Below, in pieces: positions 1-10,502 of a DNA stretch of 64,000 nt (position 1 is the stretch's first letter; every line of letters begins with the position of its first letter). Source of the DNA: a virus (Duplodnaviria; Heunggongvirae; Uroviricota; Caudoviricetes); the IMG/VR virus record IMGVR_UViG_2721755662_000004; one strand, given 5' to 3'. A program made the position numbers and the translations under genes. The notes below the pieces were generated by a model. The model made no database searches and was not told the origin of the DNA. It saw only the letters and a program-made list of their open reading frames with translations.

Positions 1-1164
1 TTATGCTTTCTTTGCATCCTCAAAAACCTCAGGGTGGGACAAATTTGGGACATCGTCACCCAATATGTCGTCAATTTTCCTCGCGTGCTCTGTCAAATGA
101 TTAGGTGCAAGGTGTGCGTACCTACGCACCATTTCGATAGACTCCCAGCCGCCCATTTCCTGAAGTACTGACAGTGGTACACCTGACTGAATTAACCAAC
201 TGGCCCAGGTATGGCGGAGGTCATGAAAACGGAAATTTTCAATTCCTGCCCGACGACATGCTGTTAACCACGATGTGTTATAGTCCAGGCGCATCTTTCT
301 GATGCTTGGTGTCATTGTCCCGTCAGGCCTTCTGGCAGCAGTGGTATAAACAAACACCCAGCGGTGATGTTTGCCTATTTGATCACGCAACACCTTGCAG
401 GCAGTGTCATTCAGTGCGACCCCAATAGCGCGGTTTGACTTACTGTCTTCAGGGTTTACCCAGGCAACACGTCGCTGCATATCGATTTGTTGCCACTCCA
501 GATTAATAATGTTTGATCTCCTCAGGCCAGTTGCCAGTGCAAATTTAACTACAGATTTCAGGGGATCAGAACATGCATCAATGAGTCTCCTGGCTTCTTC
601 TTTTTCCAGCCATCTCACGCGTTTGTTTTTTACGGCAGGTATTTTGATTACAGGTGCTTTTTCAAGCCATTTCCAGTCTCGCTCTGCGGCGCGCAGAATA
701 GCCTTGATCATTGCCAGGTGTGTTGCTTTTGTTTGCGTGCTCACCGATTTAGGTATATAGGCTGGTGGTTCTTTCCCTTTTCTTAATGCAGCCTCCACCT
801 GCAACTTCCATCTCTCCTTTGTTTTTCGGTTATACGCTTTGCTGATAACTGAGTAGATCATTGCCTCCGATATATCCTTAATCCTTATTCCCTCGAAATG
901 CTCAATCCAGAATGCGATTCTGGATTTATCGGAATCGATGGATTTCTTGTCGGCTTTTTCCTCAAGCCATCTCAGGCAGGCTTCTTCGAAAGTGACATCT
1001 GGCATATCCCCCAGTCTGTCTACTCGCCAGAGTTCTGCTTTTCGCTTGTCGTGCAACTCCTGAGCTTGCCGCTTGTCCTTTGTGCCAAGAGACTCCTTAA
1101 TTCGCTTCCCGCCCGGGAGCGAGTACGAGGCGTACCATATTTCACCTCTGCGGAAGAGTGACAT
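1..1164 (-). CDS. int: Tyrosine recombinase / phage integrase
   Basis: 387 aa; C-terminal catalytic region with [10 protein letters not shown] and RRYAHL motifs; sits at the prophage edge. Confidence 0.9.
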
Positions 1165-1391
1165 TTTCTTTCCTCTGTTATGCCATCACCCGCGCTCACC
1201 TGGACAGTATGCAGCGGTGAATGAAGTGCTGCAATGCAGGCTTGCCGGGTTGTGAGATAAGGTGATCTTTTACCGGAAGAATTTTTTCGGGTTGCCTGTA
1301 GTCGGCCCGTTCGTATCCAGTTAACAGCTGTTGGCCTTGATATCTTGAGAAACTTACAGGCCTCTTTGAGGGTGATACTGTGTGAATCCAT
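1020..1391 (-). CDS. xis: Putative excisionase (Xis/AlpA-like HTH)
   Basis: Internal Met of ORF 1020..1484; [24 protein letters not shown] resembles excisionase HTH; overlaps the int start as in lambda. Start and length uncertain. Confidence 0.45.
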
Positions 1392-1425
1392 ATTTTCGCC
1401 ATTAAAAACCGCCCGAAGGCGGTTG

Positions 1426-1677
1426 TCAGTTGATTGATATGCGGCGCATTTTTCGAAGGCTGGCAATATGCTTTTCCTTCTCAATTTCTGCTTTAATCAT
1501 GTGTAGTTCGTTGTGATCGATTCGCTCAAATTCTGCATTAAATGCGCTAATTGAAGCGGCTCTGGTTCTCCCATCCAGCCTGCGGAAGATTACCTGCGTC
1601 AGAGTGATTTTGCAGACTTCAACCGGATAGTTGTTGGCATCGACGAAAGACTGCCCGCGCTGGATTAGAACGAACAC
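1426..1677 (-). CDS. Hypothetical protein
   Basis: 83-aa ORF between xis and exo; no recognisable motif. Confidence 0.3.
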   Translation of the reverse strand: MFVLIQRGQSFVDANNYPVEVCKITLTQVIFRRLDGRTRAASISAFNAEFERIDHNELHMIKAEIEKEKHIASLRKMRRISIN

Positions 1678-1728
1678 CGGTAGTATTCCTTAATTGTCAT
1701 ATCATTTGCACCTCGTTGCTACTGGCTA

Positions 1729-2406
1729 TCACCATTGCTCCCCAAATACAAAACCAATTTCAGCCAGTGCCTCGTCCATTTTTTCGATGAACTCCGGCAC
1801 CATCTCGTCAAAACTCGCCATGTACTTTTCATTCCGCTCAATCACGACATAATGCAGGCCTTCACGCTTCATGCGCGGGTCATAGTTGGCAAAGTACCAG
1901 GCATCTTTTCGCGTCACCCACATGCTGTACTGCACCTGGGCCATGTAAGCCGATTTTATTGCCTCGAAACCACCGAGCCGGAATTTCATGAAATCCCGGG
2001 AGGTAAACGGGCATTTCAGTTCAAGGCCGTTGCCGTCACTGCATAAACCATCGGGAGAGCAAGCGGTGCGCATACTTTCGTCGCGATAGATGATCGGGGA
2101 TTCAGTAACATTCACGCCGGAAGTGAACTCAAAGAGGGCTCTGGCGTCGTTCTCGTACTGTTTTCCCCAGGCCAGCGCTTTAGCGTTAACTTCCGGAGCC
2201 ACACCGGTGCAAACCTCAGCCAGCAGGGTGTGGAAGTAGGACATTTTCATGTCAGGCCATTTCTTTCCTGAGCGGGGTTTTGCTATCACGTTGTGAACTT
2301 CTGAAGCGGTGATGACGCCGAGCCGTAATTTGTGCCACGCATCATCCCCCTGTTCGACAGCTCTCACGTCGATCCCTGTACGTTGCAGGATAATGTCCGG
2401 TGTCAT
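1729..2406 (-). CDS. exo: Lambda-type 5'-3' exonuclease (Red alpha)
   Basis: 225 aa, near-identical to my recollection of lambda Exo ([40 protein letters not shown]...). Confidence 0.95.
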
Positions 2407-3188
2407 GCTGCTACCTTCTGCTCTGTGACTTTCTGTTTCAGGAATCCAAGAACCTTCACAGCTTCAGCCTGTGTTAGTTCTGAAGATGTGTAAATGTTGC
2501 GGCGAAAAATCTGGGAACAGAGCGGCAACAGGTCGTCATCCCACGTTTTTTCCATGGAAGTAAGAAGGGCGTTAATTTCCGACATGGTTTCTTCGTTAAC
2601 CGGGGTGATGTCGCGTTCCGGCTGACGTTCTGTAGTATATGCAGTATTTTCGACAATACGCTCGGCTTCATCCTTGTCATAGATGCCAGCAAATCCGAAG
2701 GCCAGGCGAGCACACTGAATCATGGCTTTGTGCCGTAACATCCGTTTGGGATGCGACTGCCACGGTCCGGTGATTTCTCTGCCTTCGCGGGTTTTGAATG
2801 GTGCGCGGCGACATTCATCCATCCACTCGGTAACGCAGATCGGGTGATTGCGATCTTTGCGGTAAATCCGGCATGTACAGGACTCATTGTCCTGCTCAAA
2901 GTCCATGCCATCAAACTGCTGGTTTTCATTGATAATGCGGGACCAGCCATCAACGCCAACCACCGGAACGATGCCGTTCTGCTTGTCAGGGAAGGCGTAA
3001 ATTTCTTTCGTCCAGGGATTAAGGCCGTACTGGTTGGCGACGATCAACAATGCGATAAATTGCGCATCGCTGGCATCACCTTTAAATGCCGTCTGGCGAA
3101 GAGTGGTGATTAGTTCCTGTGGGTCGACAGAATCCATGCCGACACGTTCAGCCAGCTTCCCTGCCAGCGTTGCGAGTGCTGTACTCAT
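2403..3188 (-). CDS. bet: Single-strand annealing protein Bet (Red beta)
   Basis: 261 aa, matches lambda Bet over its length; start overlaps exo. Confidence 0.95.
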
Positions 3189-3193
3189 CCGTT

Positions 3194-3490
3194 TTATACC
3201 TCTGAATCAATATTAATTTGGTGACGGGCGATGGTTTCAGCCATGTAGCGGATGTGTTCTGCCATGCGTTCCTGAAAATCGACATCGTCATCAAATGCAC
3301 GGGAAATAGCTTTTTTGCTGGCCCCGTGACGTTGCAGATTATCGATGCATAGCGATTCAAACAGGTGTTGGGGCAGACCTTTTTCCAGGTCGTCTGCCAG
3401 CTCAGCTTCAGTTTCTTCACGGGCAATTTGCTGGTAGTGTCGTGCCCATGACTGCTCTTCAATGCGATCGGGGATAAGCCAGGCATTCAT
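3194..3490 (-). CDS. gam: Gam, RecBCD inhibitor (short GamS form)
   Basis: 98 aa matching the C-terminal 98 residues of lambda Gam (SWARHYQQ...[12 protein letters not shown]...). Confidence 0.9.
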
Positions 3491-7569: not shown

Positions 7570-7774
7570 GAGATCCGGGTCTTGAACCTACACAAACTAT
7601 ATAGCTCTCTTCTTTCCTCGGAAGGCCAGGTGCATCTAGCAGACGGCCTAGTTCGAATTTTTTTACGTTGACACCAGGAGGAATCACCTCGACGATAAAC
7701 CCGATTTTTACCTTCGTTACACCGTTTGATGAGCTTGACCATTTAACTTCATCGTTCAATTTGAACTTCATCAT
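7490..7774 (-). CDS. Hypothetical protein immediately downstream of N
   Basis: Starts MMKFKLNDEVKW directly after the N stop. Confidence 0.4.
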   Translation of the reverse strand: MMKFKLNDEVKWSSSSNGVTKVKIGFIVEVIPPGVNVKKFELGRLLDAPGLPRKEESYIVCVGSRPGSRAKPKYYWPRVNNLRRLQQKTCALKT

Positions 7775-7779
7775 TAACC

Positions 7780-8085
7780 TCAATCGTAATAAGCCGGAAT
7801 TGATTTTCCGCGTTGTTTCTGGCGGCCTGAGCAAGTCACACCCATTTCACTGCGTGGTTTGCGGTAGTAAATACGGTTCTGTTTACTCTCGACTTCTTCT
7901 GCCTTCTTGCAGCGAAGGCTTCCGAGTGATACTGCTTTGTCTGCTCCGACGCAACCAGAGATCTTTAGCGCAATCTTCCGTGTCAGTCTTTCACTACTGC
8001 GCCGCTCTGCAATAAGTTCTTCCCTGCGAGCTTTATAGCGGCTTTTTGCCGTACCTTTGGATTCTTTCCAGATTATGGTTACCAT
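7780..8085 (-). CDS. N: Antitermination protein N
   Basis: 101 aa from the internal Met with AAGGAG upstream; N-terminal arginine-rich motif (KGTAKSRYKARREELIAERR); C-terminus ...VTCSGRQKQRGKSIP aligns with lambda N (...ITCSGRQKIKGKSIP). Confidence 0.8.
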   Translation of the reverse strand: MVTIIWKESKGTAKSRYKARREELIAERRSSERLTRKIALKISGCVGADKAVSLGSLRCKKAEEVESKQNRIYYRKPRSEMGVTCSGRQKQRGKSIPAYYD

Positions 8086-8279
8086 GATGGTCTCCTTTAA
8101 GTGGCTTTGGTGTATGACGCGTCGAGGTGTTTTTCTTCTCGATCGCGGCCTTGCAACTGAAATTCGCGTCATCCCCAAAACCACTTAGATTTTGGTCTCA
8201 ACGGTTAGGTTGAGAGTCCATCAATGTTAAAGAGCCGGCCAATCTGTTCCGTTTGGCTTCCAGCGTCCTGCTGTTGAAT

Positions 8280-8370
8280 TGAAGATAACCTAAGTTATCT
8301 GGTTGTGCAATAACTATATTTATCATTTTATGAAAAACGTTATAAATGACTGATAACAAAAATATTTTAT
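8280..8370. promoter_or_regulatory. Putative OL/PL operator-promoter region
   Basis: Palindrome GATAACCTAAGTTATC (8284-8299) and further ATAAC/GTTAT half-sites matching those between cI and cro. Confidence 0.5.
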
Positions 8371-8418
8371 TTTTTGTGGTATCCGCGTGATATTTTCAAG
8401 GGGGAAAGGCTGATTGTT

Positions 8419-8640
8419 ATGGGTGATTGCATGTTAATCGAAGGGGAATTTGGTGTGTTGCACCAGCGGGTAGTCGAAATTCTAGGGGTGTCGTTGCTTG
8501 AGGTTATTGCTACTGGGGAAGCTATTTCAGCAGATGCTATTGCGGGAATGATCCGAGTGCTTCACCATGATGAATTGGATGATCTCGCTGTGAAGTTAGC
8601 TATAGATGTGTTACTTCAGGATATGCGACTGTGTAATTAA
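8419..8640 (+). CDS. Small hypothetical protein in the immunity region, opposite strand to cI
   Basis: 73 aa from the ATG at 8419, preceded by a G-rich SD (AGGGGGAAAGG); occupies the slot where lambda has rexAB. Confidence 0.4.
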   Translation: MGDCMLIEGEFGVLHQRVVEILGVSLLEVIATGEAISADAIAGMIRVLHHDELDDLAVKLAIDVLLQDMRLCN

Positions 8641-8668
8641 GTAAATAAAACCCGGCACTGGAGCCGGG
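8641..8668 (-). terminator. Intrinsic terminator downstream of cI
   Basis: Stem CCCGGC / GCCGGG followed on the minus strand by a T-run (TTTTATTT). Confidence 0.55.
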
Positions 8669-8793
8669 GGGATTTAGAAATGGCATTTTATGAATTGGCT
8701 ACTTGGCGAATGGTTTACCATCGGTGGTATTGAGCACAATAAAAGGCCGTTCTTCGTGAGTGTTCTTATAGCAAAAGTTCAGTTGGAGTCTGA

Positions 8794-9501
8794 TTACCAG
8801 CTATGTGATGACCAGAACACTCGCCCTATGATTCTTACGTTTTTGTAGAATTCTTCTCTGTTCATTACTTCATCAGGATACTCTTCGCGGTTTATCGATC
8901 TGATAATTACCGATGTTGGCGTGGCTATGAGCGTTTTTACCCTTAACAAATCAGCTTGGCAAATTGCATATGTTTTACCATCCCTGATGCTCGTATCTTG
9001 CGTGTTTACCCCCACCACATCACCATCATGGAGTGTTGGCTCCATGCTTTGCCCAACAACCCTGACCAACTTTGCCGCTTTTTCTGGAACTCCCATTTTT
9101 TTCAGGTAATAGCGCCTAAAAACTAGAGAGAATTCTGCGGACTCCTCCAATGCACAACTTCCTCCGCCAGCTGAAAGTGAAATATTTAGAAGGGGGAGCG
9201 CAACAAATTCTTCATTATCATTTTGATGATCATCCCAGGCGATAGCTTTTAAAGATGATTCCCGAGCATTAGATGGCTCTTCTGCGCTCTGTGGTCTCAT
9301 TGACCCTATACCAGAGCTTAGCCATTCAGGGCGAACTCTTAACGCGTTGGCTAATTCGACCATTTTACGTGATCCGGTTGTTTTACCAGATGACATCTTT
9401 TGTATGGCTGGTTGTGATACCCCCACCATGTCTGCAAGTTGTGCTTGTGACAACCCGGCTGAACTCATGGCGGCATTTAGTCTTTCTGCGAATGTTTTCA
9501 T
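8794..9501 (-). CDS. cI: CI-type repressor (HTH plus S24 LexA-like autopeptidase domain)
   Basis: 235 aa; N-terminal HTH (LSQAQLADMVGVSQPAIQKM); C-terminal GQSMEPT...DGD peptidase signature. Confidence 0.9.
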   Translation of the reverse strand: MKTFAERLNAAMSSAGLSQAQLADMVGVSQPAIQKMSSGKTTGSRKMVELANALRVRPEWLSSGIGSMRPQSAEEPSNARESSLKAIAWDDHQNDNEEFVALPLLNISLSAGGGSCALEESAEFSLVFRRYYLKKMGVPEKAAKLVRVVGQSMEPTLHDGDVVGVNTQDTSIRDGKTYAICQADLLRVKTLIATPTSVIIRSINREEYPDEVMNREEFYKNVRIIGRVFWSSHSW

Positions 9502-9611
9502 ACCTGTAATCTATAACCACGGTTATCAAAAGTAAAACAACAATTGTTATTGCCCTGGTGTATAACTCATGTTATTTTTGGTTATGCTTTATTTGCTGTA
9601 GAGGTATGCTC
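9502..9611. promoter_or_regulatory. Putative OR operators with divergent PRM/PR
   Basis: Palindromes ATAACCACGGTTAT (9514-9527) and TATAACTCATGTTAT (9561-9575) between divergent cI and cro. Confidence 0.6.
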
Positions 9612-9836
9612 ATGAATTTAGTGATTCAGCGAGCCTTGAATATTGTTGGCAGTCAAAAACGACTTGCAGCTGATTGCGGCGTATCACAGCCCGCTGTTCA
9701 TAAATGGTTGCGAGGCGGAAAAGTTTCTCCTGAAAAAGTTTTCGCTATCGTTAATGCCACCAATGGTCAGGTTAAGGCTTACGAAATTCGCCCGGACTTA
9801 CCGCACCTGTTTCCTCATCCGAACCAGGCTGAATAA
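9612..9836 (+). CDS. cro: Cro-like HTH regulator
   Basis: 74 aa from the ATG at 9612 with GAGG SD; HTH (LAADCGVSQPAVHKWLRG); divergent from cI. Confidence 0.75.
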   Translation: MNLVIQRALNIVGSQKRLAADCGVSQPAVHKWLRGGKVSPEKVFAIVNATNGQVKAYEIRPDLPHLFPHPNQAE

Positions 9837-9952
9837 GTAACACCGCTCTTTAACATTGCTGGTCGTTCACCTCTAACAGGGTGAGCAAACATCAGTGGCA
9901 AACCCATTGGGGATTGCCGCTTAACCCCATATCAATATAGGAAAATTAACAA

Positions 9953-10249
9953 ATGTCACAAACAAGTTACAGCAAACTGTCACAGCGCGATATCGATCGC
10001 GCTGAAACGGATTTACTTATCAACCTGTCAGCTCTGACGCAAAGGGGACTGGCGAAGATGATTGGCTGCCATGAATCGAAGGTCAGTCGTACCGACTGGC
10101 GATACATCGCGGCGATTTTATGCGCGTTCCAGATGGCATCTGATATCAGTCCGATCAGCCGGGCTTTCCAGCATGCCATTAACGTTCATGCAAATAAAAA
10201 ACGTCCGGTTGGGGCCGGACGTTCTGAGCAAATCCTGATGAACATCTGA
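9953..10249 (+). CDS. cII: CII transcriptional activator
   Basis: 98 aa; C-terminus NKKRPVGAGRSEQILMNI matches lambda CII (NKKRPAATERSEQIQMEF). Confidence 0.85.
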   Translation: MSQTSYSKLSQRDIDRAETDLLINLSALTQRGLAKMIGCHESKVSRTDWRYIAAILCAFQMASDISPISRAFQHAINVHANKKRPVGAGRSEQILMNI

Positions 10250-10323
10250 TATTCAGGCAGGGCATGGAGCAATACACGGGAATAATTCTGCCACATCTGG
10301 AAGAATTTCGCCAGCAACAACAC

Positions 10324-10470
10324 CAACCGCAGCAGCCTGAAGCCGATTGGGTTAACCCGGAGATACCGGGACCGTCTGTGAAGATGTGCAGTCACACCAA
10401 TGTGCAGTCACACCAACCGCAGCAGCCTGAAGCCGATTGGGTTAACCCGGGAGATACCGGGACCGTCTGC
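10324..10470. repeat. Two direct copies of a 57-bp unit plus a 15-bp tandem repeat upstream of the replication gene
   Basis: CAACCGCAGCAGCCTGAAGCCGATTGGGTTAACCCGG... at 10324-10380 and 10414-10470, with a third, interrupted copy at 11163-11243 inside the O-like gene; GTGCAGTCACACCAA x2 at 10383-10416. Confidence 0.8.
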
Positions 10471-10502
10471 GGTATGGAGTAAATCTTGTATGCGAGGGGA
10501 CT

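Follow-up and report, generated by a model that had tools for sequence, protein, structure and literature searches.

A conserved small gene of PHROG 3946 at the left-operator border of a lambdoid immunity region

Results

A small rightward gene between the left operators and cI

The 64,000-nucleotide stretch of caudoviral DNA analyzed here (IMG/VR record IMGVR_UViG_2721755662_000004; hereafter, the window) contains a lambdoid immunity region at positions 7780-10249, and within it a small gene lies on the plus strand between the left promoter and operators (PL/OL) and the end of the repressor gene cI. The original prediction, made from the sequence alone, had placed a 73-aa open reading frame (ORF) at this site on the strand opposite N and cI, and we recovered it as described, from ATG 8419 to the stop codon at 8638-8640. 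The Shine-Dalgarno sequence that had been proposed for it is also present: GGGGGAAAGG at 8400-8409 ends 9 nt ahead of this ATG. A second ATG at 8431, for which GGTGA at 8422-8426 is the candidate ribosome-binding site, would yield a product of 69 aa, and this ATG corresponds to the alignment position at which all homologs of the small gene begin; the homologs carry GAGGGA or GAGGAG 6-8 nt ahead of the start codon. The true start is therefore either 8419 or 8431. The longest form of the ORF (8374-8640, 88 codons) opens with TTG, and we consider that start unlikely because a conserved promoter-like element at 8388-8396 falls within the extension.

Conservation and coding status

The ORF listing contains numerous chance ORFs of 60-90 aa nearby, so the length of the small gene is unremarkable by itself, and the gene is unannotated in the reference records of phages ST104, epsilon34, g341c, and PA28. 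Both observations would fit a chance ORF that is no gene at all; we regard it as more than that because it is conserved. Window DNA is found at ≥98.6% identity in phage PA28, in phage 06-3462, and in a set of Stx1a phages, and DNA of the window type occurs at the same identity threshold in 50 of 5426 complete Escherichia coli genomes. In the phage 06-3462 record, the 73-aa ORF is listed as hypothetical. Beyond these near-identical copies, sequence search identified relatives (P0009 and P0010) with only ~65% aa identity, a profile search of 1.8 billion cluster representatives returned 26 clusters, and a profile search of 90% clusters returned 618 homologous proteins, none of them named, from Salmonella, Klebsiella, Enterobacter, Citrobacter, Serratia, Yokenella, and Jejubacter.

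A full-length match links the window protein to the hidden Markov model (HMM) of PHROG 3946 (residues 2-66 align with positions 2-67 of the 67-position profile; E = 2.6e-30, 105 bits), and the Salmonella, Klebsiella, and E. coli-type homologs match the same model. Within PHROG 3946, a family whose function is undescribed, the clade that includes the window protein is the most divergent one; the protein has 28-44% identity to the main Salmonella/Klebsiella type and a C-terminal tail that differs. The family is carried by 56 phage records, and BTP1 is not among them. In the record of phage SPN9CC (locus L028), a 37-aa ORF, SPN9CC_0018 (2891-3004), is annotated just upstream, and the conserved 67-aa gene (3001-3204) is left unannotated. 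A pattern scan of species-representative genomes confirmed no relative; because the patterns had been derived from the E. coli-type clade, which is narrow, and Salmonella and Klebsiella commonly carry the family, this negative does not imply absence. Literature searches with peptide strings and with the PHROG identifier returned nothing.

The small gene of the window and that of locus L002 or L003 share 61-65% DNA identity, with differences concentrated at third codon positions; the proportion of synonymous differences (pS) is 0.73-0.88 and that of nonsynonymous differences (pN) is 0.23-0.29. Comparison of the Salmonella and Klebsiella genes gave a pS of 0.68, a pN of 0.11, and a ratio of nonsynonymous to synonymous substitution rates (dN/dS) of 0.07. 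In every family pair compared, pS exceeded pN, and the five other reading frames are all closed. Judged on this sequence evidence, the small gene is protein-coding and under purifying selection. The original prediction had named a frame unconserved in related prophages as the outcome that would count against it, and the frame was found to be conserved in such prophages. The full-length HMM match, the hundreds of homologs, the excess of pS over pN, the closed alternative frames, and the fixed synteny described below all speak against a chance ORF; these conservation data have already refuted that reading, whose probability we put close to nil.

Genes and operators of the immunity region

The PL operon opens with an N-type antiterminator gene (7780-8085, minus strand), which was identified from the ORF listing; it has a weak Pfam N_peptide match (E = 8e-4) and is annotated as “antitermination protein N” in phage 06-3462. 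The cI repressor gene (8794-9501, minus strand) encodes HTH_3 (PF01381, E = 3.8e-9) and Peptidase_S24 (PF00717, E = 1.5e-17) domains, and it is followed by cro (~9612-9836) and cII (9953-10249), both on the plus strand. The switch region from N to cro (7780-9836) is of the JH2010/PA28/08-3914 type.

A pattern scan identified OL operators of the ATAACnnnnGTTAT type at 8285-8343: OL1 (8285-8298) has no mismatch, OL2 (8310-8323) has one, and a possible OL3 (8330-8343) is weak, with two mismatches to ATAACnnnnGTTAT. Three more copies of the motif lie between cI and cro (9513, 9537, and 9562), and only two other sites with ≤1 mismatch were found in the whole 64-kb window. Read from the sequence, a minus-strand promoter candidate at 8282-8310 consists of a −35 hexamer TTGCAC (8310 to 8305), a 17-nt spacer, and a −10 hexamer TATCTT (8287 to 8282); it overlaps OL1 and OL2, and we infer that it is PL.

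Downstream of cII, a replication-initiator gene occupies 10503-11585. A segment of ~70 nt is present there in three copies that are 63-97% identical (10313-10381, 10403-10472, and 11152-11244), two of them arranged in tandem immediately ahead of the replication-initiator gene and one inside it. The copies encode the repeated peptide QQPEADWVNPG, and the triplication may be a partial duplication of an internal, possibly origin-containing part of that gene.

A conserved promoter-like element outside the operators

The original prediction reasoned that the small gene would need a rightward promoter overlapping the operator region, and that its expression could therefore be tied to repressor occupancy. 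A candidate for a rightward promoter is present in the form of an extended −10 element, TGaTATTTT, at 8388-8396 on the plus strand. Its informative positions (TGn followed by nAnnnT) are conserved in eight of nine distinct upstream sequence types, at a distance of 36-43 nt from the start codon; the Serratia loci have no extended −10 at the corresponding position. Besides the window form, we observed TGcGATACT, TGcCATACT, TGcTATGCT, TGgTAAGCT, and TGgTAGGCT. The informative positions are thus kept and the others vary, which is the pattern expected, from sequence, of a working promoter. Alignments also revealed a T-rich block, ATTTTATTTTTTGT, at 8364-8377 in the −35 region of this promoter candidate, and the block is kept in relatives as (A)TTTATTTTT(R)TAAA.

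A two-hexamer promoter scan found no plus-strand promoter; this was expected because promoters of the extended −10 class are outside the model used by the scan. We also considered a rightward promoter that does overlap OL (TTGTGC-17-TTTTAT, 8303-8331) and rejected it, as its hexamer lacks A2 and the element is unconserved. In several relatives (L020 3961-3969; L002 and L003 4961-4969; L028 2961-2969), a C stands just before a −10 hexamer of the form CATACT or GATACT (TGCCATACT, TGCGATACT). This arrangement resembles the extended −10 consensus of the sigma-S type, and the TGaTATTTT of the window does not show it.

We then compared promoter and operator positions, locating the operators of each immunity type by their similarity to the right operators (OR) of the same phage. 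The −10 element of the window lies 47 bp beyond the last operator-like site (8330-8343), and in the other immunity types a gap of 41-66 bp separates the end of the closest operator from the −10 downstream of it. Across immunity types, the operator-to-promoter distances are near-constant (~90, 63, and 41-47 bp), and no operator covers the interval from −35 to +1 of the promoter candidate. Direct occlusion of this promoter by the repressor is not supported by the arrangement of sites. The promoter that was predicted is therefore matched by a candidate, but the predicted overlap with the operators is not found, and coupling to repressor occupancy is not indicated because the operators end at least 41 bp upstream of the −10. 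Given how constant the distances are, the repressor may nevertheless exert an indirect influence, by way of OL3 or of DNA looping between OL and OR.

These distances bear on the main alternative to the explanation that we develop in the Discussion, namely, that the small gene is an early lytic gene. Under this alternative, repressor bound at OL3 or an OL-OR loop would silence the rightward promoter in the lysogen, and on induction the promoter would fire divergently from PL to produce, e.g., an anti-repressor, an inhibitor of a host factor, or an anti-defense protein. The small gene has features that suit such a role: its promoter candidate stands back to back with PL at a distance rigidly kept across immunity types, the gene stays with the OL/PL side while all else changes, and small acidic phage proteins are often inhibitors. 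The small gene is also contained in the N-to-cro region that, in Stx2a phages of the JH2010/PA28 type, promotes RecA-independent toxin release (PMC10458857). However, the intervals given above leave the promoter candidate free of operators, and the OL3 of the window is weak. We consider an early lytic function somewhat unlikely, although it deserves serious weight.

The hairpin shared with the cI operon

Downstream of the stop codon, a GC-rich hairpin (CCCGGC-N6-GCCGGG, 8651-8668; −13.4 to −14.7 kcal/mol) has a terminator-like T-run on the minus strand and a poor one on the plus strand. Because of the minus-strand T-run, this hairpin is, by its sequence features, the terminator of the cI operon. 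A AAAACCCGGC-N6-GCCGGG hairpin is found 3′ of the small gene in all loci, and some relatives have T-runs on both sides of it.

Many relatives have a conserved stretch of 110-125 nt between the stop codon of the small gene and the hairpin (L020 4205-4340; L024 4205-4350; L002 5202-5320; L033 4205-4325). It occurs in at least two sequence types, one in L002 and Jejubacter and the other in Salmonella and Klebsiella, and is absent in the window; several copies end in a good plus-strand terminator. Based on its sequence, the stretch could be a small RNA derived from the 3′ untranslated region (3′UTR). Past the hairpin, a motif of the window at 8703-8715, TTGGCGAATGGTT, resembles part of the Salmonella-type 3′UTR, GGCTGGCGAATGGTT. 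This motif overlaps a 52-aa ORF (8690-8848, plus strand) that runs antisense into the end of cI, and we did not take that ORF for a gene: what it has in common with relatives is the DNA motif, which is in a different reading frame. The motif is probably a remnant of rearrangement.

An alternative that arises from this region is that the functional product is the transcript, with the protein secondary; it might act as antisense RNA, through transcriptional interference with read-through of the cI operon, or as a 3′UTR-derived small RNA. Transcription from the small gene would converge on cI, and the poor plus-strand T-run of the window makes read-through into antisense cI conceivable; the conserved 3′UTR ahead of the hairpin in many relatives also fits. 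The window, however, lacks the long 3′UTR, no Rfam match was found over 7700-9700, and purifying selection on the amino-acid sequence is strong. We judge an RNA role to be highly improbable.

A constant gene at the edge of a variable slot

We fetched loci from two E. coli-type metagenomic contigs, Salmonella P22-like prophages, phage SPN9CC, Klebsiella prophages, Serratia, and Jejubacter. In every one of these loci, the small gene runs counter to both the PL operon and the cI operon, and ~400 bp separate its start from that of the first PL gene. The operators differ among the loci, indicating that the phages are heteroimmune. The Salmonella, Klebsiella, and Jejubacter loci that were compared are 77-94% identical to one another, beside unrelated repressors, and Serratia is 65-73% identical to them.

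What lies between the hairpin and cI varies. This interval is empty in the window; it holds a gene for a 140-aa protein in L002, a P63C-domain gene (290-409 aa, PHROG 2384) in L003, Salmonella, and Klebsiella, an unknown 341-aa gene in Serratia, and, in Jejubacter, a BstA gene (KilA-N and BstA_C domains) together with an AAA_31 ATPase gene. The cargo is located at 5238-6110 in L003, 4350-5429 in L020, 4357-5304 in L024, 3243-4472 in L028, 4361-5386 in L030, and 4335-6297 in L033. The P63C-domain proteins belong to PF10546 and have no PADLOC match. The slot between cI and the small gene looks like a hotspot for defense cargo, in which the P63C proteins are uncharacterized candidates.

Because the cargo varies while the small gene stays, the small gene is the constant OL-side border of the slot that holds rexAB in lambda; it is not an occupant of the slot and is tied to no particular cargo. 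The original prediction had located the gene where lambda carries rexAB. This is accurate for the interval between cI and OL, but the slot itself, whose genes are co-transcribed with cI, is not where the small gene resides. In contrast to rexA-rexB, which encode two larger proteins and are transcribed with cI from PRM, the small gene is read from the opposite strand, has a putative promoter to itself, is separated from cI by the terminator hairpin, and encodes one small, soluble protein; no search found any sequence relation between them. The BstA system and other defense cargo downstream of cI share the neighborhood, as the Jejubacter BstA homolog between cI and the small gene illustrates; such cargo, however, is on the cI strand and varies among phages, whereas the small gene is constant and uses the other strand.

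The same loci allow us to weigh the possibility that the small gene is the antidote, regulator, or sensor partner of the convergent P63C or BstA cargo, the two forming a unit for defense or self-immunity. In most Salmonella and Klebsiella loci, the small gene does converge with a P63C gene on a common terminator. BstA-type systems in the slot adjacent to cI require cognate self-immunity (PMC8585504); aba is a DNA element rather than a protein, and the paper on BstA does not mention such a small gene. A constant partner is not found, however, as P63C and BstA are both absent from the window and from L002, and the cargo differs in Serratia and Jejubacter; despite these changes, the small gene is still intact and still subject to purifying selection, and no PADLOC model matches it. 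The cargo-free locus of the window largely refutes a partnership of this kind, which we regard as very unlikely.

Predicted structure and resemblance to YmgB/AriR

The protein is acidic, with a pI of 4.1-4.4 and a net charge of −8 to −12. Searches of Pfam, NCBIfam, and PADLOC returned no match to it, and searches of the PDB by sequence returned only noise; one family member has a sub-threshold match to DUF2767 (E = 0.032), and one UniRef cluster bears that name. The earlier statement that the product has no recognizable motif thus holds for these databases, but it needs qualification in that the protein is a member of PHROG 3946 and that one predicted structure resembles YmgB/AriR. YmgB/AriR of E. 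coli is a connector that binds other proteins, acting on the Rcs phosphorelay and binding SpoT via R74 (PMC10704370, PMC3509220).

AlphaFold2, supplied with a 14-sequence alignment, predicted three helices in a model with a predicted local distance difference test (pLDDT) score of 85; the other four models were far less confident. Two programs ranked E. coli YmgB/AriR (2OXL) as the best PDB match to the confident model, and Foldseek gave it a probability of 0.98 and template modeling (TM) scores of 0.59/0.65. A second structure model did not reproduce the top rank of YmgB/AriR. Profile-profile comparison with an AriR/YcgZ alignment (hhalign) gave a weak match (score 21, P = 0.0014-0.0026, probability 12-17%) that spans 35 columns and has the register VLGxAV..., and this score was above those of all 200 column-shuffled controls (maximum 18.8). 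Against PF10798, to which AriR itself scores 90 bits (gathering score 22.3 bits), no match was found at E values up to 1 for the window protein and for P0044, P0072, and P0041, or at E values up to 10 for 14 family members. AriR-type connectors are very divergent, and tests of membership based on sequence are therefore limited in what they show. Within the ycgZ-ymgA-ariR-ymgC operon of E. coli K-12 (L029 3790-4997), YmgA and YmgC had no Pfam match, YcgZ matched the YmgB model weakly (E = 1.9e-5), and AriR matched the NCBIfam YcgZ model weakly.

Like AriR, the phage protein is small, acidic, and predicted to form three helices. It differs from AriR in lacking the N-terminal part of ~30 residues, and a manual alignment suggests that the SpoT-binding residue R74, as well as K75, is not conserved in the phage family. 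The genetic setting is also different, as the small gene is phage-borne and stands alone, whereas ariR is within the ycgZ-ymgABC operon. Literature searches combining AriR and prophages found nothing relevant. We treat the resemblance to AriR as a lead and not as membership.

Discussion

The explanation that we tentatively favor, while giving it somewhat less than even confidence, is that the small gene is a self-contained unit making a small, acidic adaptor that binds a partner. This unit would comprise the extended −10 element at 8388-8396, a short leader, an ORF of 69-73 codons, and the hairpin at 8651-8668, which it would share tail to tail with the cI operon. Among lambdoid and P22-like prophages of the Enterobacterales, many carry this module at the edge of the immunity region nearest OL, where it stays fixed while operators, repressor, and cargo change around it. 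Its product, of ~8 kDa, very acidic, and composed of three helices, would bind a conserved partner protein rather than DNA and, in the manner of YmgB/AriR-type connectors, might modulate the physiology of the lysogen or the threshold for induction. The high identity of the Salmonella, Klebsiella, and Jejubacter loci beside unrelated repressors argues for a conserved target in the host or the phage. Roughly a third of our confidence in this adaptor model goes to an AriR-like connector role. The sequence data show that the gene is coding, to which family it belongs, that its synteny and its promoter-like and terminator elements are conserved, and that the operators do not overlap it; that the promoter fires, when it would do so, that the product binds a partner, and that it is akin to AriR are what we infer.

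Phage morons are cassettes of promoter, gene, and terminator, such as lambda bor and lom and the morons of HK97. The small gene is similarly self-contained: between core phage genes, its ORF is preceded by a promoter-like element and a Shine-Dalgarno sequence and followed by a terminator hairpin; the promoter and terminator that flank this single gene are in silico signals. Morons, however, are sporadic, whereas this cassette is highly conserved and is found at exactly the same site in heteroimmune phages from five or more genera.

A link to Shiga toxin (Stx) production can be drawn from published work on O157:H7. The N-to-cro region of Stx2a phages of the JH2010/PA28 type is needed for higher RecA-independent toxin release, and replacement of the N-to-cro segment alters RecA-independent Stx2 release, with the JH2010/PA28/08-3914 type exceeding the TW14359 type (PMC10458857). 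The effect was ascribed to cI, and the small ORF inside the deleted segment was not mentioned (PMC10458857). The small gene is thus an unexamined candidate in this phenotype. In its most extended form, the proposal would be that the small gene, rather than being a passenger, is a conserved component of the immunity region in a large group of enterobacterial lambdoid and P22-like prophages, encoding a YmgB/AriR-like connector, expressed from a promoter at a fixed distance from OL, that makes the maintenance or induction of the prophage responsive to host stress signaling via Rcs, ppGpp, or some other conserved target, might contribute to RecA-independent Shiga toxin release, and marks the fixed left border of the defense slot. 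As a whole, we consider this extended proposal quite unlikely.

The family was already represented by hypothetical protein entries and by PHROG 3946, and the small gene belongs to an uncharacterized family rather than to a new kind of system. Features that may deserve attention are its unchanging place next to OL among heteroimmune phages from several genera, the conserved promoter-like element that it has to itself, its omission from several reference annotations, and its possible link to AriR-type connectors. The immunity region of lambdoid phages is among the best-studied stretches of DNA, and yet it includes a conserved gene, with a promoter-like element of its own and at a distance of ~45 bp from OL in the window, that has no known function. 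The phages concerned include Stx phages, the classic Salmonella phages ST104, epsilon34, g341c, and SPN9CC, and Klebsiella prophages. If the gene is an ordinary accessory gene, its recognition would correct the annotation of these phages and provide a landmark for the variable defense slot beside cI; if its product is truly AriR-like, it would give prophages a compact means of reprogramming stress, capsule, or biofilm signaling in their hosts.
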